A DNA stretch of 64,000 nucleotides from Thermoanaerobaculia bacterium. GTDB lineage: Bacteria > Acidobacteriota > Thermoanaerobaculia > Multivoradales > JAHEKO01. Positions 3,001 through 47,100 of the stretch are shown here, piece after piece (position 1 is the stretch's first letter; the number at the start of each line of letters is the position of its first letter). Made by a program: the position numbers and the translations under genes. Under the pieces are notes generated by a model that worked only from the letters and a program-made list of their open reading frames with translations, searched no databases and was not told the DNA's origin. The stretch spans positions 18,332 to 82,331 of the forward strand of contig JBHHWO010000001.1 in assembly GCA_046756565.1 (NCBI GenBank), given 5' to 3'.

Positions 3001-6000
3001 ATCAGGAACGTAGTCCCGCTGAGAGAGCCGCCGCAGTCGTTCACCGACGGCGCACCCGTGGCGGCGAGGCCGGTAAGCGCGGCGCTCAGGTTGTCGGTGA
3101 AGAAGGTGATCGTGGCATCCAGGGTCGGATGGACGTTCTCGATCGTGAAGCGCAGGGTCACGGTGTCACCCGCGATCACCGGGTCGCCGAGGAATTCCTT
3201 GCTGAACCTGAGGCCGCTGACGTCGAGGTCGTCCTCGGCCGGAAGCGAGGTCGCCGCGAGACCGCCGACCGTCGCGCCGACGTCGCTGGTCGTATTGGTA
3301 TAGCTGCCCGCGGCCGCGCCGGCGGGCACGTCCAGGGTCACGCTGAAGGTGCAGCTCTCCCCGGGCGAAAGGCTCCCACCCATGAATGTGAGCATCGTGG
3401 TGCCCGAAAGCGTTCCGGTGCCGGGATCGCCGCCGGGCCCGTCCGGGTCGCAGGCTTCGGTCAACGGTAGACCGGTCGCCGTCAGACCGGCGAGCACCGG
3501 GACCAGGTTGTCGGTGAAGCTGATCGCCGTGGCATCGGCGGACTGGTCCGGCGCGTGGCTCAAGGTGAACTCGAGCGTCACCGTGCCGCCGGGCGCCACC
3601 GGATCGCCGATGAAGGCCTTGGTCAGGCTGGGCGCGGCGATCACCTCGAGCGTGTCGCTCGCGGGATCGCCGGTCCGGGTCGCGCCGTCGACGGTCGCCG
3701 TCGGCTCCTCGGTAGTATTGAGATAGATCCCGGGCGGCAGACTCGCCGGGATCGTCAGAGTGACCTCGAAGGTGCACGAGCTCCCCGCCCCGGGGGCCGG
3801 GTCCAGGGTGCCGCCGGTGAGCGACAGCCCTTGCCGGCCGGTTCCCAGGCTGATCAGGTTCAGGGTCGAGCCGACCCCACAGGGCGGATTCGGAACCGGC
3901 GGCAGCGTCACCGACACCGGGAAAGGCAGGAAGCCGCCGGTCGGCCCACCGCCGACGAGAGTGCCTTCGGTCAGCTCGTCGACGAAGGCAACCAAAGTCG
4001 CTGCCGAGGTCGTGCTGGTGTTGGTGACCGTGAACCGCAGGATGACGTCGTCGCCCGCGTTGACGACCGGGTCCGCCGCCATGGTCGTCGCGTCCCGGAA
4101 CTCCTTGGTCAGAATCGGCACCGGTGCGACGAAGAGGTCGTCTTCGGCCATGTTGCCGGTGACCATCATTCCGTCCACGGTGCCGGTGACCGCGCCGGTG
4201 GTGTTGGTGTAGGCGCCCGGAGTCGTGCCGCCGGGCACCGACAGGCTGACCCTGAGGGTGCACGAGCTTTCCGGCGCAACCGTGGCGCCGCTCAGTCCGA
4301 TCGTGGTGCCGCCGACACCGGAGACCGAGCCACCGCAGTCGTTCGCCAGCACGCTCGAGAAGGTCAGGCCGGAGAGCGCGGGTACCAGGGTCGTCAAGTC
4401 ATCGCTGAACGCCACGCCGGTCGCGGCGAAGAGACGGTCGAAGTTGGTGATCGTGAACTCGAGGGTCACCGAGCTTCCCGGAGGCACCGGATCGTCGGTG
4501 AATTCCTTGGTCAGGTGAAGCGGGTCGGTGGTTACCTCAAGGGTGGCGCTGGCCTTACCGGCGGGAACGAAGTCCGCGAGAAGATCCTCGCTCACGTTTC
4601 CGAGCAGACCGGTGCCGGTGGCTACGACGTCGACCGTGACCGTGCAGGTCGCTCCGGCCGCGAGCGCCGGGAAAATGCCAATGCCATCGGCGTCCAGGAC
4701 GATGGTGCTGGTACCCGCAATCGCGGTAAGGCTGGGTGGCAGAACAACCGTGCCGCAATCCGTCGAGGCGTTGGCCGGATCGGCGATCTCCATCCCCAGC
4801 GGGAGATTGTCGGTGAAGTCGAGATTCAGGATGTTGGAGCCATTGGCCGAGTTGTCGATCGTGAAGGTCAGCGTGCTTCTACCACCCAAAGCCACGGTCG
4901 ACGGCGCGAAGCTCTTGGAGAAGCCCGGAAGGGTCGTCACAACCATCAGGTCGTCGGTCGCGAGCGTCGGCGTGGCGGTACCGCCGGCGATGCCGTCGGT
5001 CGAAGTCAGCTCGTTGGAGGTGTTGGCGTGAACGCCCGCTGTCGCCGAGGTCACGTCGACGGTCACTTCGCAGCTGCCGAACCCGGCCACGCTGCCGCCA
5101 AAGAAGCTGACGCTCGAGCCTCCGGCGGTCGCCTCGACCGTACCGCCACAGGTCGAAGTGGGATTCGGGAAATCGGCCACTGTGATGGCCGCCGGCAGAT
5201 CGTCGCTGAAGGTCAGAAGGCCGGCCGGAATGCCGTCGGGGTTGGTGATCGTGAAGGTCAGGGTCGTCGAGCTCCCCGGCCCGATCGTGTCCGGGTCGAA
5301 GAGCTTGGTGAATCCGAGGTTGGATTCGACCGTGGTCCGGTTGACGAAGGTGCAGGTGATCTCCTCGCCCGCCGACAGGTCGATGTCGTCCGGAAAGCCT
5401 TCCGAGCAAGTCTCCGAGACCAATTCCCAGCCGCTCGGCACGGTCTCGACCACCTCGTAGATCGCTGGGAGAAGGAACCTCATGTAGGGCGGGTCCTCGT
5501 CGGTGAGACCGAAGGAGTCGACCGGCGCGACCTCGACGATGTTGAGGTCGAAGTCGAAGCTGGTCGGATCTCCTCGAGGCTCGGTGACCTTGTCGACGAT
5601 GATCTTGCCGGCCAACGAGTTTTCGAAGGTACAGGTTACGGTTTCCGCACCGTCGACGACGATGGTGGCGGTTCCGCTCCCGAGCTCCACGGACGAGTTG
5701 CCGTCGTCGCAGTCGATGTCGGTCAGGATCCAGCCGGGGACCGGGGCTTCGGTCACAGTGTAGGTGCCGGCCGGGACGCTGAAGGTCATCATGCTGGGTA
5801 GTGTGATGTCGGCGTCGTCATCCAGATCGAAATCGCCGATCGGAGCGGAGCCGCTGAAGCTGAAATCCTGAGCGTTTGGAGAGGGGATCGCATCCTTGAC
5901 GATGACGACGGCGGGGCCCACCACGCCCGCGAAAGCCGCCGGCGTGCCCGCGGCCGCCAGGATCGTCACGAGCAGCAGAGATAGAAGACCCTCGGAGCGG

Positions 6001-19366: not shown

Positions 19367-20656
19367 CTAGGACGCCCCTCGGGACCTCCTCCCACCGGTG
19401 ATCAGCCGCGCGGTCCGGCCGTGCGTGAAGTAGCTGTAGGCCCACTGAACGAGAACCAGGACCCGGTTCTCGAAACCGACCAGATACATGATGTGGATTG
19501 AGAGCCATAGGAGCCAGGCGAAAAACCCCGTAAAGCGCAGAAAACCGACATCGGCGACCGCGGCGGCTCGCCCGATCACCGCCAGGCTGCCACGATCCCG
19601 GTACCGGAACTCAGGAGTAGGTCTACCGGACAGCCGCCGCCCGATGAGCCGCGCAGCGAAGCGACCCTGCTGCATCGCTACGGGAGCGACTCCGGGCAGG
19701 GCTTCCCCGTCCGGCCCGGTGAAATGACAGATGTCCCCGATCGCCAGAAGCTCGGGATGGCCGGAAAGGGTGCAGTCAGGCTCGACGATGAGCCGCCCGC
19801 ACCGGTCGAGCTCAGCTCCGGTTCGCTCAGCCAGCCGGCCGGCCAGCGACGACGCCTTGACGCCGGCCGCCCAGAGGACGGTCCGCGCGGCCAATTCCGA
19901 GGTGCCGGCTTTCGAGCGCAGCGTCACGTAGCCGTCGCCGACGTCCTCGAGCAGGGTCTGCGACCGTACTTCGACACCGAGCCTCGCCAGGGACTTCTCC
20001 GCCGCGGCAGAGAGCGCCCTTCGATAGGGCGGCAGAACGCGATCCGCTCCTTCTATCAGGATGATTCGCGCCGACGCCGAGTCGATGTTCCGGAAGTCGC
20101 GCTTCAAGGTGTGCCTGGCAAGCTCCGCAATGGCTCCCACGAGCTCGACGCCGGTCGCCCCACCTCCCACCACGACGAAAGTCAAGAGTGCCTCTCGCTC
20201 GGCCTGGTTTCGGCTTCGCTCGGCGTCCTCGAAGGCCTTCAGGATCCGGCCACGGATCTCGGTGGCGTCGTCGACCGTCTTCAGCCCCGGCGCCAGCTCT
20301 TCCCACTCGGGACGTCCAAAATAGTGGTGACGCACACCGGTCGCGATGACCAGCGTGTCGTAGGGAAGGTCCCCGCTCTCGAACGACACTCGCCTGTCCC
20401 CGACGTCTATGTCGACCACCCTCTCCATGACGACCGTCACGTTTCCCTGTCGGTGGAGAATCGCGCGAATCGGCGCGCTGATGTCAGCGGGCGAGAGCCC
20501 TCCGGTCGCCACCTGGTAGAGCAACGGCTGAAAAAGATGGTAATTGCGCCGATCGACGAGCGTGACCTCGACCGGCGCGCGCTTGAGGCCCTTGGCGGCG
20601 GCAAGCCCAGCAAAACCGCCCCCGACGATGACGACCCTGTGACGATTCGGCCGCAT
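19367..20656 (-). CDS. ndh: Type II NADH:quinone oxidoreductase (NDH-2), FAD-dependent
   Basis: VVIVGGGFAGLAAAK and VVVGGGATGVELVG dinucleotide folds, GDICH, and a C-terminal amphipathic/membrane segment FFAWLLWLSIHIMYLVGFENR. Confidence 0.9.
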   Translation of the reverse strand: MRPNRHRVVIVGGGFAGLAAAKGLKRAPVEVTLVDRRNYHLFQPLLYQVATGGLSPADISAPIRAILHRQGNVTVVMERVVDIDVGDRRVSFESGDLPYDTLVIATGVRHHYFGRPEWEELAPGLKTVDDATEIRGRILKAFEDAERSRNQAEREALLTFVVVGGGATGVELVGAIAELARHTLKRDFRNIDSASARIILIEGADRVLPPYRRALSAAAEKSLARLGVEVRSQTLLEDVGDGYVTLRSKAGTSELAARTVLWAAGVKASSLAGRLAERTGAELDRCGRLIVEPDCTLSGHPELLAIGDICHFTGPDGEALPGVAPVAMQQGRFAARLIGRRLSGRPTPEFRYRDRGSLAVIGRAAAVADVGFLRFTGFFAWLLWLSIHIMYLVGFENRVLVLVQWAYSYFTHGRTARLITGGRRSRGAS

Positions 20657-20689
20657 GAGCCGATCCTATGGGCTTGCCGCCTCGACGAA

Positions 20690-20728
20690 GTCGAAAAAAG
20701 GGCCCCCGATTCTGAAATCGGCGGGGCA
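20690..20728 (-). terminator. Rho-independent terminator closing the sigma/anti-sigma/CHAT/small-ORF transcription unit
   Basis: The minus strand reads gccccgccgatt-tcag-aatcgggggc followed by ccttttttcg. The stem is 10 bp with a 2-nt bulge. It sits between the stop at 20755 and the ndh start at 20656. Confidence 0.65.
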
Positions 20729-20754
20729 TCGTGCACACGACCTGGTCGGGCCGA

Positions 20755-21093
20755 TCAGTCCATGAGGACCTTCGCCAGGCTCTGGCCCTGGTCCTTCTTG
20801 CGCTTCACCGCGACGCCGAAGATGTAGAGACCGGCTTTCCAGGTCTCCTTGCGGATCGGAACCACGCGGAGAATGTAGAAGCCGTCGAGCCGGACCTTGC
20901 TGACGCTGGTGATGTTCACCAGGGCGCCGCCGGGGCCAACGATGATCGAGTCGACTGCGAAGTTCCGCTTGGTCAGGCCCGTGACTGGTTTTCCGTCTTC
21001 GTCAGTCACCGAAACAACAATGTAGTTGGGCTTCCGGTTTCCCGGGGCCGCAATGGTGTCTTCCGAACGTGCTACGACTATCAATCTCGACAA
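20755..21093 (-). CDS. Hypothetical 112-aa protein (beta-rich, no signal peptide seen), last gene of the CHAT operon
   Basis: Clean ORF MSRLIVVARSEDTIAAPGNRKPNYIVVSVTDEDGKPVTGL... with protein-like composition. It starts 79 nt downstream of the CHAT gene and is followed by a terminator. No family recognised. Confidence 0.55.
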   Translation of the reverse strand: MSRLIVVARSEDTIAAPGNRKPNYIVVSVTDEDGKPVTGLTKRNFAVDSIIVGPGGALVNITSVSKVRLDGFYILRVVPIRKETWKAGLYIFGVAVKRKKDQGQSLAKVLMD

Positions 21094-21172
21094 CTTACGA
21101 CTCCTTCCTCTGGTCTGGAGAATTGCCGCACCATGCGGCAGTCAGTAAGACGAATCTGCGACCGAGAATCTC

Positions 21173-23920
21173 TCAACCGGACTTGCGCCGGAATCGAAGT
21201 CCGATGAGCACGAGCAGCCCGAGCCCGGCCAGCGCAACGACGACATGCACGGGCGAAACCGCGCGAATCCCGCCCGGCATTGGAACGAGATTTCCGTTTC
21301 CGAGCACCACGATGCCGCTCCAGGCCGACGCCGGACGACCCTCGGCGATCCACTGCCTCTGGGTCTCGGCCACGGCCTGACTCACTGTCTGTCCACGCGC
21401 GAGATTCCGGTAGAAGTCCTCGAAAAACGCCGCTGCCTGACGATCGTCCAGTCGCCACAGGCTCCCGACCACGGCGTGGGCGCCCGCCTCGAAGAAGGCC
21501 CGGGCGAGACTCAGAACACCCTCGCCCCGCAGCACGCTTCCCGACGCGCTGCTACAGGCCGACAGAACCACGAGCTTCCCGTCGAGCCCGTCGAGGCGCG
21601 CGATCTCGGCGGGACGCAAGAACCCGTCCTCCGATGGGTCGCCCGCCGCCAGCAGAATCGCCGAGCGCTGCGGCCGCTCCCAATCGGTCACCGCGTGCGC
21701 TGCGAAGTGGAGGACGTCGAACTCGTCCAGACTCTCCTCCTTGAGAGAGGACTCGCTCGCTCGCTCCCGGGAGAGGAGCCGGGTCGAAGAGCCGAAGTGA
21801 CGCGCCACACGTTTGCCCTCGCGCTCGGCAAAGGGAAGCGGCCCCAGGTCGGCGCCCGAGTCCAGAGCCCAGGCCCGCTGGGCGGCCGAGTCCGCTGTGT
21901 TCGGCAGCGTCGGATTGGCGAACACCAGCGCGGCGGCCGAACGCTCCCGGTCTGCGGTTTCCTCGCGCCCACGCCAACGCAGCCAGAGCTGAGCCGAAGG
22001 CGTCAGCGTGAGCTCGAAGCGATCGGCCAGCGGAGGAGACTCGACCTCGGGTCGGAGGGTGGCGAACGGCAACAGGTGAAGCAAACCATCGGGTACCAGA
22101 ACGAGTTTCCGAATCCCCGGCTCCAGACCGGCCAACGCCTTCTCGACCGTCTCCTGGAAGAGCCGCACGGCAGGCCGGCCCTCGGGCTCCGGAAGTCCCA
22201 GGAACGCCTTGATCCAGGGCTCGAGCGAAGCCCGGTCGGCACCCAGTGCATGCAGCCGCCTACCCGACCGGGTCACGACCAGGAGCCAGGACCCGCCGAG
22301 GAACCGCCCATCCCAGCCGCGCCAGAGGCCGACTTGAAACGACAAGAGCGCTTCGTCCGGAGCCAGAGCCTCGGCAACGCGGTCCAGAAGGTCGGGACCC
22401 GGAGTGTCGAAGCCGGGGGATGAGGAGCTGGCGACGGCCAGCCGGCTTTGGAGCTCCGCTTCGCGCGCCTCCAGAGCGGCAAGGCTCTCGAGCGCGGAAC
22501 GACGGTCTTCGGCGGCCAATCCCGGATCGAGAAGTCTGCGGTAGCTCTGGACGAGCTCCAGATCGAGCTGTCTGAGGCTGCCGACCAGATCTGCCGGCAA
22601 CTCCCTCTCGGCGCCCCGCTCTTGACCCAGGACCTCTCGCAGCTCCTGCGACCTCAAGCGCTCAATCACCGCAAACGCTCGCCGAATCTCCTCGGGCGAC
22701 GGCGAGTCGGACAGCAGGCGGCCCGCCTGCCAGTAGTAGGCGTCGGCCCAGGCCGAGAGCAACCGATTCGAGGCGGCGCCGACCTGGGCTCGGCGCAGAG
22801 TCTCGATCGCGCCCAAGACGACGTCGGCTCCGGCGAGTGCCTGCTCCCTGGATTCGGTTTCCCAGAGGACGCGCAAGTGGTCAGCCCAGCCGTAGAAGAG
22901 GGCCCAGGGGCCCGGATTGGCGAGACCCGCCGCATAGGCTTGGTCCAAGAGCAGGCGTGCCTCGCCAGGATCTTCGGCAAGGCGCAAGCTGGCGAGCGAG
23001 AGAAGACATCGGCGCTCGAGGTCGGTGTCCCGAATCGACCGAGCGAGCTCGCGGCAACGCAGCAGGTGGTCGCCAGCTTCGGGTCCGGCGGAGAACTCGG
23101 CAACCAATCGACGGGCCTGGGCCTCGACCTCCGCGTGCCCCACGCTCTGGGCCAGCTCGAGCAGGCCGTTGAGCTCGCAGAGAACGCGTCGCCGGCTCTC
23201 GTCATCGGGCAGCTCGGTTCTGAGCGTCCCGTAGACCGCGTTGTAGCCGGCCGACACCCGATCCCGCGACGTGCCGTTGGCCTCGGCCAGACGCTTGGCC
23301 TCTTGAGCGTACTGGTGGGACTCCGACTGAAGTCCCAGATCCAGCGACACCGTGACCAGAGATCGCAGACACTCGAGCATGACGAGATACGAGGTCGAGT
23401 CCGCGGCAGACAGAGTCTCGTGGGCCGTCCTGAGGCGGCGCCGGGCCCGCTCGAGGTCCTCCCCTTTGAGCATCAGATAGTGAGCCTCGGCGATCAGGAC
23501 CCGGGCACGGTCCTCGGGAGCCAGTCGCTCGCCGGCCAGACTCCGGGCGGCGGCCAGCTGTAGGGCGGCACCCTCGAAATCACGGCCAAAGCCCAGAAAG
23601 GTCACCAGACTGGTCCGAGCGTGGATCTCGCCCGAGGCATCGCCGGTTCGCGAAAACTCCTCGGCCGCTCCGATCAGCAGCTCTAGGACCGCCGGATCGG
23701 AAAACCGCAGCAGCCGCGCCCGGAAGTAGCTCAGCCAGGCGGACTCCGGGTGAGCCTCGGCCAGACTCGCGAGCTCTTCGGCGCCCTCGCGCCTGCGGTT
23801 TTCCTGCCGAGCCCGGCGATAGACACAGTCTGCTACACGCCGATCGGTCTCGCCGACTCGGATCTCCTCCCGGCATACCGGGAAGAGATTCTGCGCTCGG
23901 CCGGGCACGGCCGCGACCAA
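21173..23920 (-). CDS. TPR-repeat / CHAT (caspase-like clan CD) protease domain protein with a C-terminal transmembrane anchor
   Basis: The N-terminal ~550 aa are helical and TPR-like. The CHAT core has the His motif VLHFAAHAV and the Cys motif LVVLSACSSASG. The C-terminal VVVALAGLGLLVLIGLRFRRKSG is a TM helix. The listed start is a TTG, and the true start is uncertain (see findings). Confidence 0.85.
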   Translation of the reverse strand: MVAAVPGRAQNLFPVCREEIRVGETDRRVADCVYRRARQENRRREGAEELASLAEAHPESAWLSYFRARLLRFSDPAVLELLIGAAEEFSRTGDASGEIHARTSLVTFLGFGRDFEGAALQLAAARSLAGERLAPEDRARVLIAEAHYLMLKGEDLERARRRLRTAHETLSAADSTSYLVMLECLRSLVTVSLDLGLQSESHQYAQEAKRLAEANGTSRDRVSAGYNAVYGTLRTELPDDESRRRVLCELNGLLELAQSVGHAEVEAQARRLVAEFSAGPEAGDHLLRCRELARSIRDTDLERRCLLSLASLRLAEDPGEARLLLDQAYAAGLANPGPWALFYGWADHLRVLWETESREQALAGADVVLGAIETLRRAQVGAASNRLLSAWADAYYWQAGRLLSDSPSPEEIRRAFAVIERLRSQELREVLGQERGAERELPADLVGSLRQLDLELVQSYRRLLDPGLAAEDRRSALESLAALEAREAELQSRLAVASSSSPGFDTPGPDLLDRVAEALAPDEALLSFQVGLWRGWDGRFLGGSWLLVVTRSGRRLHALGADRASLEPWIKAFLGLPEPEGRPAVRLFQETVEKALAGLEPGIRKLVLVPDGLLHLLPFATLRPEVESPPLADRFELTLTPSAQLWLRWRGREETADRERSAAALVFANPTLPNTADSAAQRAWALDSGADLGPLPFAEREGKRVARHFGSSTRLLSRERASESSLKEESLDEFDVLHFAAHAVTDWERPQRSAILLAAGDPSEDGFLRPAEIARLDGLDGKLVVLSACSSASGSVLRGEGVLSLARAFFEAGAHAVVGSLWRLDDRQAAAFFEDFYRNLARGQTVSQAVAETQRQWIAEGRPASAWSGIVVLGNGNLVPMPGGIRAVSPVHVVVALAGLGLLVLIGLRFRRKSG

Positions 23921-23965
23921 AAGGGCGAGAATGGCCGGCGCGACTCTCAGGTCGTCAATCTTCCG

Positions 23966-24643
23966 CTATCGAACACTGAACGGAAAGGTACCGCTGGCTA
24001 TCGTGCCCTCCCCGGGCCGCTGGACTTCGATGTAGGCGAGCAGACGCTCGATCGAGCGGTCGGCGGGCAGGAGCTCGGCCGGCACGAGGTACTCCGGCCG
24101 GTCCAGATCAACGGCTTTCGACACCGCATCCAGATCCTCCGTCGAGACGATGACCTCGTATCTGGCGTCCTCGTAGGCCGTCCAGCGAAGGAGACACTTG
24201 TCGCGCGGTAGGGGCTCGCTGCCGATCTCGAGTTTCACACCCGCCACGCCGGCCGAGCGGGTAACGGGCTCGGGTCCTTGCAACGGCTGGCCGATCACCA
24301 GCCCGATGACGACCACCAGAGCCGCCGCGGCGAGGACCGACGCGGCTTTTTGCCACCCGAGGGACACCGAGCGTGAAGCTCTCGCATCGGCGGGCTCGCT
24401 CTTCTCGACCTCTTCGGCCAACCGCCAGGCTTCCGTGCAAGCGCCGCACGACGCCACATGCCCGAGGACCCGACGCAGAGCGCTAGGATCGAGCTCGTCT
24501 CGGACGGCGTCCATGATCTCGCCGGCCGGCGGACAGTCCTGTGAGGGAATGTCCTGAGCTCCGAATTGCATGAACGCCTCGCGCATACGCTCGACTTCCT
24601 CCGAAGTCACCGTCACGGCGTCAGCTCCATGCCGCGGAGACAT
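23966..24643 (-). CDS. Anti-sigma factor (zf-HC2 type), single-pass membrane protein
   Basis: N-terminal H-x3-C-x2-C motif (LGHVASCGACTEAW), TM helix AASVLAAAALVVVIGLVIG, and a ~110-aa extracytoplasmic domain. It overlaps the 3' end of the sigma gene. Confidence 0.8.
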   Translation of the reverse strand: MSPRHGADAVTVTSEEVERMREAFMQFGAQDIPSQDCPPAGEIMDAVRDELDPSALRRVLGHVASCGACTEAWRLAEEVEKSEPADARASRSVSLGWQKAASVLAAAALVVVIGLVIGQPLQGPEPVTRSAGVAGVKLEIGSEPLPRDKCLLRWTAYEDARYEVIVSTEDLDAVSKAVDLDRPEYLVPAELLPADRSIERLLAYIEVQRPGEGTIASGTFPFSVR

Positions 24644-25155
24644 TCCCTCAGGCCCTCGAGGCCGCGGTATACCAGGTTACTTGCGCGTTTCGTGTTCCAA
24701 CCCATCTTTTGAGCGATCTGCGGCACCTTGTACCCCAGCAAATGGAGAGTTACCGCCAGTTTTCGGGGTTCTACCAGCTGCTCAAGACATTTCCTGATTC
24801 CCGCCGAGATCTCTCGACCGAACGACTCCCGCTCTGGACTCGGCCGGGTCTCGGGCACTGGCATTTCCTCTCCTGTCGTCGTTTCTAGTGGAATCTCCTT
24901 ACGGCTTCGCTGTCTGCGGATTTCATCGACCAGGGCCGAATACGCCACCTTCCGTAGATAAGACGCAGGAAACTCCCTATCTGTCTCTCTTTTCTCGGCG
25001 ATTCGCATAAGCGCCATCATTCCCGCCTGGACGAGATCGTCTTCTCGGTCGCGCAGCCAGGCCGGGCAAACGCTGCGCACCGCCGCCAAGAGTTTTTTTC
25101 GAATACGAGAGTACTCGTCGCCACCAGTCAATGGTTCTCCTGTGCAATGATCCAA
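24613..25155 (-). CDS. ECF-type RNA polymerase sigma-70 family factor
   Basis: Region 2 (DDLVQAGMMALMRIAEKRE...YLRKVAYSALVDEIRRQ) and region 4 HTH (LLGYKVPQIAQKMGWNTKRASNLVYRGLEGLR). The listed start is a TTG at 25155. A TTG at 25131 preceded by AGGAGA is a better candidate start. Confidence 0.85.
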   Translation of the reverse strand: MDHCTGEPLTGGDEYSRIRKKLLAAVRSVCPAWLRDREDDLVQAGMMALMRIAEKRETDREFPASYLRKVAYSALVDEIRRQRSRKEIPLETTTGEEMPVPETRPSPERESFGREISAGIRKCLEQLVEPRKLAVTLHLLGYKVPQIAQKMGWNTKRASNLVYRGLEGLRECLRGMELTP

Positions 25156-25262
25156 TCAATATTGTAACCCTCATGTGAGACAAGAGGCTGCCGCGCTACG
25201 TCGCATAGACAGCCACGGGGTTGTGAGCAGTTGACGAGATGGGATCTCTAAAGGAGGACGGC

Positions 25263-25901
25263 ATGAAGAGAAACTCTGGTTGGCGAACAGGGGGCGCCGC
25301 TGTGCTTGGACTCGCACTCGCAGCCGGCGCCGCACAAGCACAGACCACGCGCTGGTGGGACTGGGCGCTCTCGCCGCAACTGGGATCGGCGGAGCTGTCT
25401 CTCGAGAAACGCCTCTACGAGCCCGCCAAGGACGAGGTCGCCTGCATGCGCTGCAAGCACTACGCGGAGCTGCGCGTGGGCATCGATGAGCAGGACTTCC
25501 AGGGGGCCGACTTCGACGTCACTCACTTCATCGCGGGCTACCGGTACTACGCTTACGTCCAATTGAAGGACGGACCCCGAGGGCACAAGGTCGACGGCGG
25601 CTGGGCGGCCTATCTCGGCGCCGGCCTCGGTCGCTATGAGCTCGATCCAGGCGAGCCGGTTTCAGGATGGAATGCCCGGTTCGGTGTCGACAAGAAAGTA
25701 ACCGAGACCTGCAAAGGCGGAAAACCCCGAAAATGGGCCCTGGACTGGGAGGTCAGCGCGACCTATCACAACCTGTCGGTCCCGGGGGCCGATTTCGACT
25801 ACTGGAACTTCCAGACCGGCCCCCGCTTCCTCTTTCCCAGCTCCCGAGACACAGAGCGCGCGGAGTACTTGAAGATCTGCGAGCTCGAAGGCGAACAGTG
25901 A
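25263..25901 (+). CDS. Secreted hypothetical protein, possibly a small outer-membrane beta-barrel
   Basis: ATG at 25263 preceded by AAGGAGGA. Signal peptide MKRNSGWRTGGAAVLGLALAAGAAQAQ. Alternating aromatic/polar strands (YRYYAYVQL, WALDWEVSATYHNL, NFQTGPRFLF). Confidence 0.55.
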   Translation: MKRNSGWRTGGAAVLGLALAAGAAQAQTTRWWDWALSPQLGSAELSLEKRLYEPAKDEVACMRCKHYAELRVGIDEQDFQGADFDVTHFIAGYRYYAYVQLKDGPRGHKVDGGWAAYLGAGLGRYELDPGEPVSGWNARFGVDKKVTETCKGGKPRKWALDWEVSATYHNLSVPGADFDYWNFQTGPRFLFPSSRDTERAEYLKICELEGEQ

Positions 25902-25905
25902 CTCT

Positions 25906-25936
25906 GGCGGGGGCGAGCGTGCCGCTCGCCCCCGCC
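25906..25936. terminator. GC-rich hairpin between convergent genes (putative bidirectional terminator)
   Basis: ggcgggggcgagcg-tgc-cgctcgcccccgcc, a 14-bp perfect stem. There is no strong T-tract on either side. Confidence 0.5.
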
Positions 25937-25975
25937 CTTCCCGACCGCTCCCGGAGCGCGCTCCCGGAGCGAGGT

Positions 25976-26887
25976 CTAGAGGTCGGCTACCAGGGAGACC
26001 GTCAGGATCGAGTCCAGGCTGTCCAGCTCTGCCAGGATTCGCTCGCCGGTGACGAAATCGCCCTGAACAACGAGCACTTCGCCAAGCGCTGGAAGATTGT
26101 CGTAGAGGAGCTGGAGACTTACTTTCAGAGCCAGACGCTCGCTCAAGGTCGCTGATATGGAGTTAACGATATCGGCGCGGTAGTCCGACGTTTCGTCGAT
26201 GTTGCCATCGAAGATGAGAGCGCTCTCGAACGAAGTCGAGGGGTTCAGTCGGCGCCAGTAGTCGTACGAAAGCCGCAAGCCACCAAAGCTGTCGTTTTCT
26301 CCGGAGACATCTGCCTGATCGGTAACGGTGGCGCCGTAGTCAGTTCGGAGTCGCGTCGTCTTCGACTCCTGCCACACGTGGCCGACACCGCCAAAGGCTG
26401 CCGTCCGGCTGTTGATTCCGGCGAATTCGTTCCGGTCCCATCCCAGTCCTGCGAACCAAAACAGCTTCTTGGACAGCTCCCGATCGTAGCGGCTCCTGAG
26501 AAAGTAGTTCTCGGCGGTGAGCATCGACTCGCTGGACTCCCGAATCACGAAATCGGACGCCGTTCCGACCGCCACTCTCGAGGTCGTGGTGGTCTCCGCG
26601 CGCACCGCACCCGCCGCTATCTCGAGAGAGGCACCCTGCCACCTGCGGGTGGCCGTATTGCGCAGCGAGATCGTCTGGACTTCGGCGTTTCCCTCGCTCG
26701 CGAACAGAGCGAGCTCGGCGGTGTCGAACCAGCCGATCGGCGGAGCCTCTTCGTCCTGGGCCGAGAGGGCGCCTGCCGACACGAGCACACAGCCAACTGC
26801 GCCGACGGCCAGAAGACGAGCTCGACCCGAAATACAAGAACACATGGTGGAGAAGCTCGGAAGAGAGTCCTTGGAAGCGGGAAGCAC
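25976..26887 (-). CDS. DUF481 family outer-membrane protein (YdiY-like)
   Basis: Signal-like ARLLAVGAVGCVLVSAGALSAQ and beta-strand repeats ending in ...LALKVSLQLLYDNLPALGEV, the characteristic DUF481 C-terminal block. The start may be an internal Met. Confidence 0.8.
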   Translation of the reverse strand: MLPASKDSLPSFSTMCSCISGRARLLAVGAVGCVLVSAGALSAQDEEAPPIGWFDTAELALFASEGNAEVQTISLRNTATRRWQGASLEIAAGAVRAETTTTSRVAVGTASDFVIRESSESMLTAENYFLRSRYDRELSKKLFWFAGLGWDRNEFAGINSRTAAFGGVGHVWQESKTTRLRTDYGATVTDQADVSGENDSFGGLRLSYDYWRRLNPSTSFESALIFDGNIDETSDYRADIVNSISATLSERLALKVSLQLLYDNLPALGEVLVVQGDFVTGERILAELDSLDSILTVSLVADL

Positions 26888-26945
26888 TAGGCTTCGCAGC
26901 CGTACGCTCGATCTACGGAGATACGCGCGGCCAGAACGGCGACGG

Positions 26946-27377
26946 TCAGCTGGCCGGAGAGATGGTCAAGGTGTATTCGATGATCGTTTCATCCGGCAGG
27001 AAACCGGTATCGAAAACCAAAAAGCAATAGTCGGCCTGGTTGAGGCCCAGAACCACGAGATCGCCGACCCGGGCCGAGACCGAGTAGGTGGGCGAGCACT
27101 GATCTTCGGCTGGACGACCCACGCCGACCCCCAGCACCCACTCGGTGTCCGCCGGCTCCACGCCTTCGACCGGCTTCTCGTCGAGGCGGGTGAATTGGAC
27201 GTGGACCGTGCCGCTGTCCGAGAGCACGACGGGATGGATGTTCCTGCCGTCGGCACCGATCTCCGACTCGAAGACGAGAGGATCCTGAATCGGAGATGTC
27301 GAGCTGTCGCAAGCGAGCCCGAGACTCGCGACGACGAGCAACAGAAGCAAGTTTCGAGCTGGTGAGCGTCTCATCAT
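26946..27377 (-). CDS. Hypothetical lipoprotein (143 aa)
   Basis: MMRRSPARNLLLLLVVASLGLACDSS (lipobox LGLAC). Lies upstream of, and is co-oriented with, the DUF481 gene. Confidence 0.6.
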   Translation of the reverse strand: MMRRSPARNLLLLLVVASLGLACDSSTSPIQDPLVFESEIGADGRNIHPVVLSDSGTVHVQFTRLDEKPVEGVEPADTEWVLGVGVGRPAEDQCSPTYSVSARVGDLVVLGLNQADYCFLVFDTGFLPDETIIEYTLTISPAS

Positions 27378-27606: not shown

Positions 27607-29718
27607 ATGCCCGAACGAGACGAGCTCAGAACCGGCTGGTCGACGAAACTCACGCGGATCACTCTCGCGGCACTTCTGTTTCTTCTGCTGAGCGGACTGC
27701 TGGTTACGCTCGCTCCGTTTCACGCGGCGGTCCAGTGGAGCGTGCTGCTCCATACTGTGGTCGGTTTGCTCCTGTTGGTTCCCATCCTCTGGTACTCCTG
27801 GAGCCACTGGCTCGACTACCGTCAATACGACCTCACCGACGTCGTACTGCTGGGCTACCTCGCGCTGGCCGCTCTCGCCGTGTGCCTGGTTTCCGGTGTC
27901 GTAGTCACCTACCAGGGGCTCTTTGCTCTGCGAATGTCCCCCCTTTGGCGCAACCTCCACCTCTATTCCACGATCGCACTGCTGGTGCTCTCGCTGCCAC
28001 ACGCCGTCCTGGTCTTCGTGCGTGTTCGCAAGAAGATCGGGGGCCATTTCGCGCGCCCTCTGACCTCTCAAGCGACCCTGGTCACGATCGTAGGCCTGGC
28101 TGCTGCCGCTGTGCTCGGATGGTGGTACTCAGGCCCCACGTACGACAACCGCTTTCCCGATGACTACAACTTCCTCTATGGCGAGGATCGGCCGTTCGCT
28201 CCCAGCCTCGCCCAGACCACGACCGGCGGCGCTTTCGATCCCGAATCGCTCGCCGGCTCCGAAACCTGCGGCTCGGCCGGATGCCACAGCCAGATTCTGG
28301 AGGAGTGGACGCCGAGTGCTCATCGCTACTCGGCCATGGATCCTCTCTTCCAGAAGGTGCAGAGCGTCATGGCGGAGCAAAACGGTCCGGAATCGACCCG
28401 CTACTGCGGTGGATGTCACGATCCGATCTCGTTGTTCTCCGGAACCAAGAACGTCTTCGCCGAGAATCTCACCGGCTTACATGGCTACAACGAGGGGATC
28501 TCGTGTCTGTCGTGTCACGGAGTTCGCGAGACCGACCTCCAGGGCAACGCCAACTACGTCATGACTCAGCCGGCTACCTACCTGTGGCAGTGGCAAGAGG
28601 CGGGCGCCGGCAAGTTCCTCAGCGACTTTCTGATCCGAACCTATCCGGACAAGCACAACGAGCTCAGCAAGCGCATGTTCAAGGCTCCCGAGTACTGCGC
28701 CGCGTGCCACAAGCAATTCATCGATCAGGAGGTCAATCGAGTCGGCTGGGTCCAGCTCCAGAATCAATACGACAACTGGAAGGCGAGCCACTGGTTCACG
28801 GAGGGCGACCCGGAAAAGACCGTCGAATGCCGCGAATGCCACATGCCGCTGGTGGAGTCGACCGATCCGGCAAGCGGAGACTCCGTCGACTACAACCGGT
28901 CTGAGCAAGACGGCATGCACAGGAGTCACCGGTTCATCGCCGCCAACACGCTGGTCCCTGCCATGCTCGAGCTCGATGGCTGGCAGGAGCACATTGGCCT
29001 GACCGAAGAGTGGCTCAGGGGCAGCTTCGAGATTCCGGAGATCGCCGACAAGTGGCGGGATGGCCCGGTCGTCGAGCTGGCTCTCGAGACGCCGGCCGCA
29101 ATCGCTCGCGGCGGCAAGCTCCCGATCCGCGTCGTCATGACCGCCAACAAGGTCGGGCACGACTTCCCGACCGGACCCCTGGACATTATTCAGAGCTGGC
29201 TGGAGATCCGAGTTGCCGACGAGTCGGGCAATGAGATCTTCTCCTCGGGCACCCGCGACGAAAAGAACTTCATCGAGCCGGGCAGCTTTCTATTCAAGGC
29301 GGAGCCCGTCGATCAGTACGGCAATCTGATCGACCGGCACAATCTGTGGGAAATGGTCGGTGTTCGCTATCGGCGTGCGTTGTTTCCAGGGTACTCGGAC
29401 ACCGTTGATTACCTGGTCGACTGTCCGACCACGGTGGCGCCAGGCCAGCAGCGGGATCTCGCGCGGACCGGCCGGGAGGAACGGTCGTTCGAGATCGAAG
29501 CCCCCGATCGGCTCGACACCTACCAGGTCACCGCGTCGCTCATGTATCGCAAGGTCGATCAGTTCCTGATCAACTTCCTGCTCGGGGAAGACTCCGGCCT
29601 GACCGCGCCCGTGATCGAGATGACCCGTGCCTCGGCAACCGTCGAAGTCCGGGAGAGAATCTCGGACGCGGGTCCGCCGGAAGCCGACCCCGAGGCCCAA
29701 CTCGGCGTCGGCGGCTAA
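27607..29718 (+). CDS. Membrane-anchored multihaem c-type cytochrome: an N-terminal polytopic His-containing membrane domain fused to a periplasmic c554-like multihaem domain
   Basis: SD AAGGAGGG before the ATG. About 5 TM helices in aa 15-185 with conserved His (LLHTVVG, SLPHAVL). Haem motifs are CGSAGCH (CX4CH), CGGCH, CLSCH, CAACH and CRECH. CH...W.PSAH is typical of the cytochrome c554/c-prime-like family. Confidence 0.85.
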   Translation: MPERDELRTGWSTKLTRITLAALLFLLLSGLLVTLAPFHAAVQWSVLLHTVVGLLLLVPILWYSWSHWLDYRQYDLTDVVLLGYLALAALAVCLVSGVVVTYQGLFALRMSPLWRNLHLYSTIALLVLSLPHAVLVFVRVRKKIGGHFARPLTSQATLVTIVGLAAAAVLGWWYSGPTYDNRFPDDYNFLYGEDRPFAPSLAQTTTGGAFDPESLAGSETCGSAGCHSQILEEWTPSAHRYSAMDPLFQKVQSVMAEQNGPESTRYCGGCHDPISLFSGTKNVFAENLTGLHGYNEGISCLSCHGVRETDLQGNANYVMTQPATYLWQWQEAGAGKFLSDFLIRTYPDKHNELSKRMFKAPEYCAACHKQFIDQEVNRVGWVQLQNQYDNWKASHWFTEGDPEKTVECRECHMPLVESTDPASGDSVDYNRSEQDGMHRSHRFIAANTLVPAMLELDGWQEHIGLTEEWLRGSFEIPEIADKWRDGPVVELALETPAAIARGGKLPIRVVMTANKVGHDFPTGPLDIIQSWLEIRVADESGNEIFSSGTRDEKNFIEPGSFLFKAEPVDQYGNLIDRHNLWEMVGVRYRRALFPGYSDTVDYLVDCPTTVAPGQQRDLARTGREERSFEIEAPDRLDTYQVTASLMYRKVDQFLINFLLGEDSGLTAPVIEMTRASATVEVRERISDAGPPEADPEAQLGVGG

Positions 29719-44138: not shown

Positions 44139-47100
44139 TCAGAAGATCCCGCCACTCGGCTTGGCGCAAGCCGTGCCGGTGATCGGGATCGACCCCCCAT
44201 CCACGTCGACGAAGGGCGGATTGAGCGTTGCGCTCGGCGTGCCGGTACCAGCGTCTCTCGTGTTTGGACCGCCTCGCACGCCGTCGTCGGCCAACTCGGC
44301 CTCGCAGTCTCCGGTGGAGCCGCCCGTACAGGGACCGGACGCCGCGTTGTTGACCGTGCCCTGGTACAGCACGATGGACCCTACGCCCGCCTCTTCCTCG
44401 AACTCGAAGCCGTCGGGTGAGACCGCGGTGTCGAGCGCCACGCATATCGTGCCGCCGCCACCCACGTTCGACGACTCGAATTCGACCGTCTCGGTCGTTG
44501 AAAAGAAGGCCTGGTCGTGGAACACCATCGTCTCGTTCTCGATCGACAGGTCGAGGTTGCCGCCGTTCCTCACCCGGTTTCGTGTCGGGATACCCGGCAC
44601 GGTAAAGGTGCCGAAGAACGGGTCCGGGCTGAAGAAGTCGTCTCGCCCGCGATGGCTGTTGCCGGTGATGAGCACCGCCGCCGAGGCGTTCCGATCGCCT
44701 CGGAGGAGGTAGGGCGAATTGATCGGACCGTTGAACACGTTGTCGTTGACTCGCACCTGGGCGTCGCCGTTGACCGAGCCACCACCGCCGCCGACGTCGT
44801 TCTCGAAGATGAGTGAGAGAGCTCCGTCGCCGCCAGCGGCCGTCATGATCTCGTCGGTCGTGCTGCCCATCCGATCGTCCGGTCCGACAGCCACGCCGAA
44901 CTGGTTGTACTCGACGATGCCGTCCAGTGTGCCGCCGCGCATGCGCAGCGCCAAGCCGCCCTGAGGGAAGTTACCGAACGTCGAGAGCGTGCTCGAGTGG
45001 TCGGTGACCCGGAAGGTATTGTTGGCGACTATGGCGTCGAGGTCGCCGGAAGCGCTGGCCTGGTGGGCGATCAGGACAGAGGCGAACTTGCAGTTGATGA
45101 ACTCGTTGCCGTCGTCGCCGTCCACGTGACCCGCAGTGGTATCCGTCTGATCACCGATCGTGACAGTCGTAGTGGTCGAGCCCTCGGAGGACACGGAGAT
45201 GCAGAACCTGCCGAGCGAAGCGATGGTGCCGCTGGTGAACTCTTTGTAGGCGTCGGTGAAGTCGCTGTCGGTGACCGTGACCGCGAGCGAGCCCGAGGAA
45301 GCGGAGAACAGCTCCAAAAGGGCGGCTCCCCGCCTGAACAAGCTGCCCGTCACGCTGGCTGTGCCGTCGATGCCGACAATTCGAATTGCTCCCTCGTCCT
45401 GATTGTCGGCGAGCCCGGCGACATGGAACCGGTTGGTGTCCTCGAGCAGGCTGTCGACCACGGTGAGGCCGGTCCAAGTGGTCGCCGAGACGCCGTTCGT
45501 GAAGAGAGCGCCGTTGACCGCCTGGTCGCTGATTCGCCGGATGATCGTATTGTCGAGAGTCAGGCCACCGCCAACGGCCTCGCCGTGAATGGCGTCGTCC
45601 TGGCTGCGGTCATCGATCACTCCGGCCGTGGTGCCAATGTCCTCGAAGAGCATGTTCTCGAAAGTCACCCGGCCGCCGGTGGTGTCGAGTGTGACCGCAT
45701 CGCCGTCGATGTTTTCGATCGTGCCGCCGTCACAGTCGAGTGTCATCGCGGTGTTGCCGCACGGACCGTCGATCCCGGTCACCGAGAACGTGCCGGCCCC
45801 GGTGGTGTCGAGGTTGATGGCAGGGTTGGTGCTCGTGCCGCCGCCGTCGACGTCGATCGACTGGAAGGTGACGCCGGCGCCACCGATCGTGACCGAGTCA
45901 ATGTCGACCGCTGTGCCCGAGACCGCCGTCGTGGCACCGACGGTGTTGACCACCGGCGTTCCGCCACCGGCTCCGCAGTTGGTGTCGGCGCAGACGTTGA
46001 CCGTGCCGCTGGTGCTCGCGTTGAAGGCGGTGCTGCCACCGGTGTCGAGGGTCATGCCGCCGGAGAAGGTCACCGTACCGGCACCGTTGCCGCTCAGATT
46101 GATGCCGGTGCCGTCTTCGTCGATGGAACCGCTGAAGAGAGCGGTGCCGCCGGTGCGTCCGGTTACTTCCACCGCGCGCGCGGTCGAGTTGGAGATCGTC
46201 GCGGCCACGGTGACGTTGCCGCTGCCGGCGTTGACGTCGACGGCGTTGCCGGCAGGATCGTTGCTCGACCCGATCGAGCCGCCGTTGATGTTGACCGCGT
46301 TGGTGTTGGTCCCGACGTCGATGCCAGCACCCGTCGTCCCGTCGATGTCGACGGTCGAAAAGGTCACCGTGCCGTTGGCACCCAGCAGATTGATGCCGGC
46401 GTCGGCTGTGGCGTCGATCGTCGCCGAGGTGAAGTTGAACGCCGCGCTCGACGAGACGATCGAGATGCCGTCGGCCGTGCCACCGGTGCCGTTGATGTCG
46501 ACAGCGCCGCCGTTGAAGGTGCCCGCATTGGTGGTGTTGATGACGCTGATACCGGCAGTGCTGCCACCGGTACCGGTTTTGTTGATGGTGTTCCAGTTGA
46601 TATCACCTGCACCGATCGCGACGCCCGAAAGATTGACGGTGGTTCCGTCGACCACGTCGATCGTGTTGACAACACCGGTACCTCCGCCGGCCTCGCAGTT
46701 GGTATCGGCGCAGACCTCGACCGTGCCGCTGGTCGTGGCGCTGAAGCCCGTGTTGCTCCCGCTGACGTCGATGTCGATCCCGCCGGAGAAAGACACGATC
46801 CCGGCGCCGTTCGAATCCAGCCCGATCCCGGCGCTGTTCTCGTCGACGGCCCCGGTGATTGCCACTTCGGTACCCATGTAGCCGGTGACTTCGACCGTAC
46901 GACCCATGCTGTTGGACAAGCTCGCACCGATCGTCACGTTGCCGCTGCCGCCGTTGACGTCGAGGCTGCGGTTGGCCGTGCCCTGAATCGTTCCTCCGCT
47001 CACTGTGAACGAACCGGTCGCCGCGCTGTTGAGCAGAATCCCGTTCGCACCGCCGTTCTTGTTGACGGTATCGAACGTGACTCCGATCCCACCGATCGTG

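Follow-up and report, generated by a model that had tools for sequence, protein, structure and literature searches.

What does a caspase-like protease do when its gene directly follows those for a sigma factor of the extracytoplasmic function (ECF) type and an anti-sigma factor bound to the membrane? The question is raised by a stretch of 64,000 nucleotides from a Thermoanaerobaculia bacterium (Acidobacteriota; GenBank assembly GCA_046756565.1, contig JBHHWO010000001.1, positions 18,332 to 82,331 of the forward strand), referred to here as the window and numbered from its first letter. Four co-oriented minus-strand open reading frames (ORFs) were confirmed at 20.7-25.2 kb of the window, encoding an ECF sigma factor, an anti-sigma factor, a TPR-CHAT protein and a 112-aa protein. 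The identities agreed with those in an earlier reading of the sequence (the original prediction), with Sigma70_r2 and Sigma70_r4_2 matched above their cut-offs, CHAT at 1e-60 and zf-HC2 below its cut-off. That prediction took the CRISPR-associated protease Csx29 of Craspase as its model and proposed a stress or defence-type switch. The present analysis points to a closer precedent, the DdvA-DdvS pair of Myxococcus xanthus, in which anti-sigma factor and TPR-CHAT protease are one polypeptide. We give about an even chance to the reading that the locus is a “split DdvA”, in which a separately encoded CHAT protein would act in trans as the site-1 protease of the anti-sigma factor.

Related loci (numbered with the prefix L) were obtained from a scan of species-representative genomes, one genome per species, which returned at least 521 CHAT relatives; the 79 top-ranking loci were analyzed, and hidden Markov models of the sigma and anti-sigma factors were run against all six-frame ORFs of the related loci. 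In 46 of the 64 cases with enough upstream sequence, the sigma and anti-sigma genes immediately precede the CHAT gene and share its strand. Hosts were Acidobacteriota (Thermoanaerobaculia, Holophagae, Vicinamibacteria, Polarisedimenticolia, Multivoradales) and Myxococcaceae, including isolates of Myxococcus and Corallococcus. Six metagenomic contigs carried orthologues (28-67% identity); on five of them a sigma gene was followed by a gene of ∼210-228 aa and then by the CHAT gene. Separate ORFs encoded the three proteins in each of the 46 linked loci, as in the window, and ORFs that overlapped were in different frames. No flanking gene was conserved across the family, an enolase-superfamily gene and Ser/Thr kinases recurring only in subclades, and no defence gene recurred beside the cassette in other genomes. 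The conserved unit is a cassette of three genes, sigma, anti-sigma and CHAT. The operon of the original prediction was retained as a conserved unit for these three genes in two phyla but not for the 112-aa ORF, for which no homologue was found in any of 85 related loci.

The sigma gene (24613..25155, minus strand) was translated by the ORF tool to 180 aa from TTG at 25155. The product matched Sigma70_r2 at 29.6 bits (cut-off 24) and Sigma70_r4_2 at 27.2 bits (cut-off 25.7) in Pfam, and TIGR02937 at 70.6 bits (cut-off 42.9, E-value 1e-19). With these domains and a length of 172-180 aa it is an ECF (group IV) member of the sigma-70 family. The best specific NCBIfam subfamily model was TIGR02984 at 40 bits against a cut-off of 183.75, and no subfamily model was reached. 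An AGGAG Shine-Dalgarno sequence is present 5 nt before a second TTG, at 25131, and this arrangement is kept in the closest locus, L007. The N-terminus starting at 25131 is conserved in L007, L001 and L003, and the orthologues are also 172 aa long. On account of the conserved AGGAG spacing and the orthologue lengths, the sigma factor probably starts at 25131 and has 172 aa.

The second gene (23966..24643, minus strand) encodes a single-pass protein with a C-H-C-C domain, predicted to be cytoplasmic, a transmembrane segment at residues 100-118 (hydrophobicity scan) and a ∼105-aa domain predicted to be periplasmic. Its ORF and the 3' end of the sigma gene overlap; the junction sequence also contains an alternative GTG at 24616, which would give a GTGA start/stop overlap. 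The Pfam match to zf-HC2 was weak (20.2 bits against a cut-off of 22.2, E-value 6.5e-4). The N-terminal region nevertheless carries H62-x3-C66-x2-C69 together with C37, and the gene directly follows that of the sigma factor, as in zinc-binding anti-sigma (ZAS) factors. H62, C66 and C69 were invariant in 6 orthologues, and C37, H62, C66, C69 and R129 were at least 90% conserved among 144 representatives of the family. The sequence is that of a ZAS-type class I factor, a putative inhibitor of the cognate sigma factor. R129 is located ∼10 residues beyond the transmembrane helix, in a Pro-rich stretch with the consensus P-x-Y-R, and is near-invariant. The periplasmic part is a conserved module of ∼100 aa with invariant residues of its own, including L152 and W154. 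The family comprised 991 clusters at 50% identity (E≤1e-30); the representatives of the 150 best-scoring clusters were all 206-257 aa long, and none of these 150 was fused to CHAT.

The third gene (21173..23950, minus strand) encodes a caspase-like protease of clan CD, predicted to be exported, with 925 aa if read from CTG at 23950 and 915 aa from TTG at 23920, the start chosen by the ORF tool. In 925-aa numbering the protein has a signal-peptide-like segment at 1-19, a solenoid at ∼24-510, the CHAT domain at ∼530-885, a transmembrane segment at 898-916 and a basic tail. CHAT was matched in Pfam (PF12770) at 1e-60. The His and Cys motifs named in the original prediction, HFAAHAV and LSACSS, are both present and place the dyad at H752 and C799 (C789 in the 915-aa ORF). 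Both residues were conserved in 91/91 relatives; in 69 more distant TPR-CHAT proteins C799 was invariant and H752 at least 90% conserved. The domain and its conserved His-Cys dyad together identify a clan CD CHAT protein.

The TPR part of the original description found no match in Pfam but was recovered as a solenoid by structure prediction. The AlphaFold2 model had a predicted local distance difference test score (pLDDT) of 90 and a predicted template-modelling score (pTM) of 0.89, and consisted of an all-helical repeat solenoid at 24-510, an alpha/beta CHAT domain at ∼530-885 and a terminal helix. In Foldseek the whole protein was aligned to DdvA, Csx29 and separase, and the solenoid to the TPR domains of LGN/Pins. 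A TPR-like solenoid ahead of the CHAT domain is accordingly predicted by the model, and the CHAT family profile also matched TPR proteins weakly. The top Foldseek match was DdvA (8rw5, 8e-14), with Csx29 (8eey_B, 2.3e-13) and separase close behind. A search of PDB sequences with the single CHAT protein returned nothing, DdvA being reached only by family profile and fold search; the best PDB match of the family profile was DdvA 8rot_B (3.9e-7, over the catalytic core), with separase and Csx29 far behind.

Whether the protease could meet the anti-sigma factor depends on its export. The CHAT frame is open upstream of TTG 23920, where it encodes LRVAPAILALLVAAVPGRAQ, including RKIDDLRVAPAILALLVAAVPGRAQ, a typical signal-peptide core. 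Because this open upstream frame encodes a signal-peptide-like segment, the CHAT protein of the window is probably exported, as judged from the sequence. The only start-like codons before the signal peptide are CTG at 23950, with GGAAG nine bases 5' of it, and ATT at 23959. The same pattern of CTG, Arg or Lys and a hydrophobic run is common to the window and its two closest orthologues (67% identity; L002 and L007), in all of which the signal peptide is located upstream of every ATG, GTG or TTG (window 23920-23965, minus strand; L002 984-1060; L007 4932-5010). A non-canonical start codon is thus probably used in these three genes. Gene callers shortened these CHAT proteins to 911 and 899 aa.

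In the wider family an N-terminal hydrophobic region was present in 73/76 CHAT relatives, with a canonical start codon just before it in 67/76. A C-terminal transmembrane segment with a basic tail was found in 58/68 relatives by strict criteria, the remainder being similar by eye. The C-terminal anchor claimed for the window's protein was located by hydrophobicity scan and is followed by RFRRKSG. In orthologues whose N-termini are complete, two Cys residues are conserved just beyond the predicted cleavage site, which is consistent with a periplasmic disulphide. The export and anchor signals predict a protease that faces the periplasm, the compartment also predicted for the ∼105-aa sensor domain of the anti-sigma factor.

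In the window (TAG, 23966-23968), as in L002 and L007 (TGA; ∼4929-4931 in L007), a single stop codon separates the anti-sigma ORF from the CHAT ORF, which shares its frame. Stop-codon read-through giving a DdvA-like fusion was considered and is unlikely, as the signal peptide would then form a second transmembrane segment and CHAT would be cytoplasmic. The two frames differ in L001, L006 and other, more distant loci, and the shared frame is probably a coincidence.

To our knowledge, DdvA is the only studied case in which a TPR-CHAT protease is connected with an ECF sigma factor at the membrane. In this transmembrane anti-sigma factor of Myxococcus xanthus a CHCC zinc domain binds the ECF sigma factor DdvS and a TPR-CHAT region is periplasmic (PMC11506125, PMC6061681); it has been proposed that, on activation by a signal, CHAT cuts the juxtamembrane linker in trans within a dimer, with RseP acting next (PMC11506125). 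The cassette resembles DdvA-DdvS in its ECF sigma factor, its single-pass anti-sigma factor with a CHCC-type zinc domain, its TPR-CHAT protein with a His-Cys dyad, for which a periplasmic location is predicted, and the logic proposed for it, with CHAT as site-1 protease ahead of RseP. By profile and fold, DdvA (PDB 8ROT/8RW5) is the closest solved structure to the cassette CHAT. The site-1 role suggested for the TPR-CHAT protein in the original prediction had already been proposed for DdvA-DdvS (PMC11506125).

The two arrangements differ in several respects. The anti-sigma factor of the cassette, of ∼220 aa and with a small periplasmic domain of its own, and the TPR-CHAT protein are products of separate genes and not one polypeptide, so any cleavage would occur in trans between two proteins, in contrast to autoproteolysis within a DdvA dimer. 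The CHAT protein of the cassette carries its own signal peptide and C-terminal anchor, and sequence similarity to DdvA is limited to ∼125 residues of the CHAT core. No CBASS (cyclic oligonucleotide-based anti-phage signalling system) or CRISPR island adjoins the window cassette, unlike DdvA-DdvS. Fused DdvA-like proteins have been reported from Myxococcota and one Comamonas, in a survey that covered fused proteins only (PMC11506125). The split cassette has a much wider distribution, in Acidobacteriota and Myxococcaceae, and is far commoner than the fused form, its anti-sigma family alone amounting to nearly 1,000 clusters at 50% identity. It also occurs in cultivable species of Myxococcus and Corallococcus and, since enzyme and presumed substrate are separate, the site-1-protease hypothesis is testable in trans. 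No description of the split cassette was found by full-text literature search pairing CHAT with ECF, sigma-factor and related terms.

Regulated intramembrane proteolysis is known from DegS and RseP acting on RseA (sigmaE) and from PrsW and RasP acting on RsiW (sigmaW). In the canonical pathway an extracytoplasmic site-1 cut on the anti-sigma factor precedes an intramembrane site-2 cut (summarised in PMC11506125). The single-pass anti-sigma factor is shared with the cassette; site-1 enzymes of the DegS/PrsW type are serine proteases or metalloproteases encoded elsewhere, whereas here a clan CD cysteine protease is encoded in the operon. Genes for CHAT proteins, subtilases and carboxypeptidases are found in the ECF54 neighbourhood, for which proteolytic control has been proposed (PMC8999054; PMC7826278). 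ECF54 is actinobacterial and was described without an anti-sigma factor, in contrast to the conserved ZAS anti-sigma factor and the Acidobacteriota and Myxococcaceae hosts of the cassette, which on both counts departs from the ECF54 description. CalpL-CalpT-CalpS and the SAVED-CHAT/PCaspase modules with PCc-sigma likewise encode protease and sigma factor together (bioRxiv 10.1101/2023.06.23.546230), but are cytoplasmic, activated by cyclic oligoadenylate, located in type III CRISPR/CBASS loci and built from other protease and sensor domains.

The type III-E Craspase (Cas7-11, Csx29, Csx30, Csx31 and CASP-sigma/RpoE; PMC10028731), the model adopted in the original prediction, has the TPR-CHAT fold class and a protease-controlled ECF-type sigma factor in common with the cassette. 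It differs in being cytoplasmic and RNA-activated via Cas7-11, and its substrate Csx30 is unrelated to ZAS anti-sigma factors. Membership of the Csx29 family was rejected, the model NF041237 scoring 22.7 bits against a cut-off of 300 and the window containing neither cas genes nor arrays. Csx29 is accordingly retained only as a distant cytoplasmic analogue.

A mechanism can be proposed along the lines of DdvA. The anti-sigma factor would hold the ECF sigma factor at the inner membrane via its zinc-binding C-H-C-C domain. Binding of a periplasmic cue, probably proteinaceous or peptidic, to the TPR solenoid would activate CHAT, which would cut the anti-sigma factor on its periplasmic side. The resulting stub would become the substrate of an RseP-type site-2 protease, and the released sigma factor would turn on a regulon located mostly elsewhere in the genome. 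For the cut itself Arg129, in the Pro-rich juxtamembrane linker, is a speculative candidate for the P1 residue because separase, as several other clan CD enzymes, cuts after Arg. The separase site is (S/D/E)xExxR (PMC11506125). The site-1 role is plausible because linkage is conserved, the dyad is invariant and the predicted topology places enzyme and substrate in one compartment. A fuller form of the proposal is put forward more tentatively, as somewhat less probable than even: that the exported clan CD protease is a signal-activated, in-trans site-1 protease of the ZAS anti-sigma factor, that it cuts at the juxtamembrane Arg, that the cassettes form a large unrecognised ECF class of Acidobacteriota and Myxococcota, and that the fused DdvA is a derived form. 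If correct, a caspase-like enzyme would join the short list of site-1 proteases, and the function of many abundant bacterial CHAT proteins would become easier to explain.

Several points weigh against the site-1 proposal. DdvA variants H862A and C907A performed as the wild type did when no signal was present, and both the activity of its CHAT domain and its signal are unproven (PMC11506125). For the window's protein and its two closest orthologues, no start-like codon other than CTG or ATT precedes the signal peptide, and if TTG 23920 were the true start the protein would stay cytoplasmic. The sigma/anti-sigma pair was not directly upstream in 18/64 CHAT genes, several of which are tandem second copies or local rearrangements. 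Global template-modelling scores (TM-scores) in Foldseek were low (0.25-0.4), as is expected for multi-domain solenoids, and the lead of DdvA over Csx29 and separase was marginal. Arg129 could be structural and not a cleavage site; cleavage or interaction within the cassette family is at the level of prediction from sequence; and adjacency cannot separate a regulator from a co-transcribed target.

This last point leads to the view of the CHAT protein as output: a sigma-dependent, co-transcribed periplasmic protease acting on envelope or foreign proteins, the anti-sigma factor being inactivated otherwise, by a DegS/PrsW-type protease or by oxidation of its zinc site. Effector genes are often found downstream of the sigma/anti-sigma pair in ECF operons, and regulators and targets are indistinguishable from context alone (Casas-Pastor et al., PMC7826278). 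Tandem CHAT pairs, seen in L004, L009, L010, L012, L018, L056 and L068, fit an expansion of effectors, and the ZAS-type zinc site could itself sense redox state. We consider such an output role unlikely, since linkage is very tight in two phyla with no other conserved neighbour, which is more typical of a signalling partner, while tethering to the membrane would hold protease and anti-sigma factor in one plane and the fused DdvA is a Rosetta-stone link of anti-sigma and CHAT functions. Less probable again is a CHAT protein that signals by other means, either as a non-proteolytic co-sensor whose TPR solenoid controls the access of another site-1 protease (cf. RseB/RseA) or as an enzyme inhibited by a securin-like anti-sigma domain, with the signal running from anti-sigma factor to protease. 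Securin inhibits separase from within the active site, and the CHAT domain of DdvA was seen in a resting state (PMC11506125); the periplasmic module of the anti-sigma factor, folded and conserved over ∼100 aa with its invariant L152 and W154, would suit such a role. A dyad kept in 91/91 relatives would not be maintained by pure scaffolding, which counts against the co-sensor but is compatible with the securin-like version.

The defence-type switch of the original prediction, a CRISPR-independent counterpart of Craspase in which CHAT would act as Csx29 does on a Csx30-like sigma inhibitor in an anti-phage response, is in our estimate very improbable. The fold class is common to the cassette protein and Csx29 (8eey_B), and sigma-releasing proteases have precedents in Craspase with Csx30 and CASP-sigma, CalpL with CalpT and CalpS, and DdvA-DdvS. 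A weak domain-level match to BovA, a CHAT-containing model of the anti-phage defence database PADLOC, was also obtained. Set against this are the low score of the Csx29 model, the predicted location of the protease, periplasmic and not cytoplasmic, and the genomic setting. PADLOC detected no system in five proteins, namely the products of the four ORFs and a divergent 220-aa protein; no CRISPR array was found in the 64-kb window, as the original prediction had also stated, and no cas genes were present there. Around the cassette lie genes with housekeeping, respiratory and envelope functions, encoding TypA, NDH-2, a multihaem cytochrome and an outer-membrane protein of the DUF481 type, and no defence gene is recurrent elsewhere; nothing links the locus to defence. 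The split form of DdvA, with CHAT acting in trans, is therefore kept as the preferred reading of the cassette.

Variants of the cassette were observed among the related loci. In some loci the two tandem paralogous TPR-CHAT genes both follow one sigma/anti-sigma pair. A subclade of Thermoanaerobaculia has a gap of 400-600 nt between its anti-sigma and CHAT genes, containing an ORF for a peptide of ∼45-50 aa, which ends in CC-T-(A/S)-PP-x-TDP-x-P-x-K (L014 4679-4817, L019 4656-4800, L022 ∼4560-4707, L038 4608-4761). The same gap contains a stretch conserved as DNA, with similarity in all three frames and no match in Rfam. The peptide might serve the protease as ligand or substrate. In Myxococcaceae (L030 ∼4400-4928, L031, L033, L042 and L076) an extra gene is present between the anti-sigma and CHAT genes, whose product, of ∼150 aa, carries a signal peptide and belongs to no Pfam family.

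The divergent intergenic region (25156..25238) contains the 5' region of the sigma gene, where the candidate elements TGTCTCAC (25175-25182) and GGTTACAAT (25161-25169) were located on the minus strand. In L007, L001 and L003 the sigma gene has comparable elements upstream, GTCTCAC and then GGT(T)A(C/G)AAT. As an ECF promoter the combination GTCTCAC...GGTTACAAT was rejected: it is common to close relatives, but its spacing is inconsistent and it has one occurrence in the window, TGTCTCAC being found there once. A shared ECF-type promoter was likewise discarded after a two-block motif search of 54 sigma-upstream regions gave nothing above shuffled controls.

On the other side of this region a gene on the plus strand (25239..25901) encodes a 220-aa protein with several Cys residues, predicted to be secreted from its signal-peptide-like N-terminus. 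No Pfam, NCBIfam or PDB match was found for it. Homologues at the same relative position were found by phmmer in L007 (2e-103) and in L001 and L003 (∼1e-18), its place beside the sigma gene being conserved only in these closest relatives. The protein may be a regulon member of the sigma factor. In L001 (2418-6465, minus strand) and L003 (2-2438, minus strand) a second operon is divergent from the sigma/anti-sigma/CHAT cassette. In L001 it encodes the 220-aa homologue, a paralogous ECF sigma factor (39-41% identity), a subtilase matching Peptidase_S8 and two small ORFs, with no obvious anti-sigma factor; on the shorter contig of L003 it encodes the 220-aa homologue, a paralogous sigma factor and an unannotated ORF running off the contig end. 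These second operons recall ECF54-type protease contexts.

The 112-aa ORF (20755..21093, minus strand) is co-oriented with and adjacent to the cassette but outside its conserved part. It starts 79 bases after the CHAT gene and has its own Shine-Dalgarno sequence, GGAAGGAG. Its place as a fourth operon member was rejected, given its absence from the related loci and its stand-alone occurrence in other phyla. A total of 721 homologues were found; the 120 listed were nearly all exactly 112 aa long, ∼70% identical and gapless, with source names including Cyanobacteria, Dechloromonas, Chitinispirillaceae and Anaerolineales. The protein thus occurs in Cyanobacteria, Betaproteobacteria, Fibrobacterota, Chloroflexota and Acidobacteriota. 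Elsewhere the gene stands alone among variable neighbours, sometimes beside transposases. AlphaFold2 predicted a 7-strand beta-sandwich (pLDDT 86) with generic Ig-like matches only and no signal peptide, and the protein, which was assigned to no family, is described here as an Ig-like orphan.

A GC-rich hairpin resembling an intrinsic terminator is located 3' of the 112-aa ORF (20694..20727, minus strand). RNA folding of 20650-20765 gave GCCCCGCCGAUU-UCAG-AAUCGGGGGC, then CC and UUUUUU. This bears out the terminator placed at ∼20.7 kb in the original prediction, though an automatic consensus terminator scan found none, probably because the U-run begins 3 nt after the stem. Neither the window nor four sibling loci gave any match in Rfam.

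An envelope gene cluster (25239-27377) adjoins the cassette and includes, beside the 220-aa protein, the DUF481 outer-membrane protein (25976-26887, minus strand) and a 143-aa lipoprotein with the lipobox LGLAC (26946-27377, minus strand). The multihaem cytochrome, of 703 aa (27607-29718, plus strand), is just past this range. Farther along the window an ORF of 3291 aa (44139-54014, minus strand) gave no Pfam match even at E≤0.1; with its signal-peptide-like N-terminus and a composition strongly enriched in Gly, Thr, Ala, Asp and Asn, it probably encodes a giant secreted beta-helix or adhesin-like protein.

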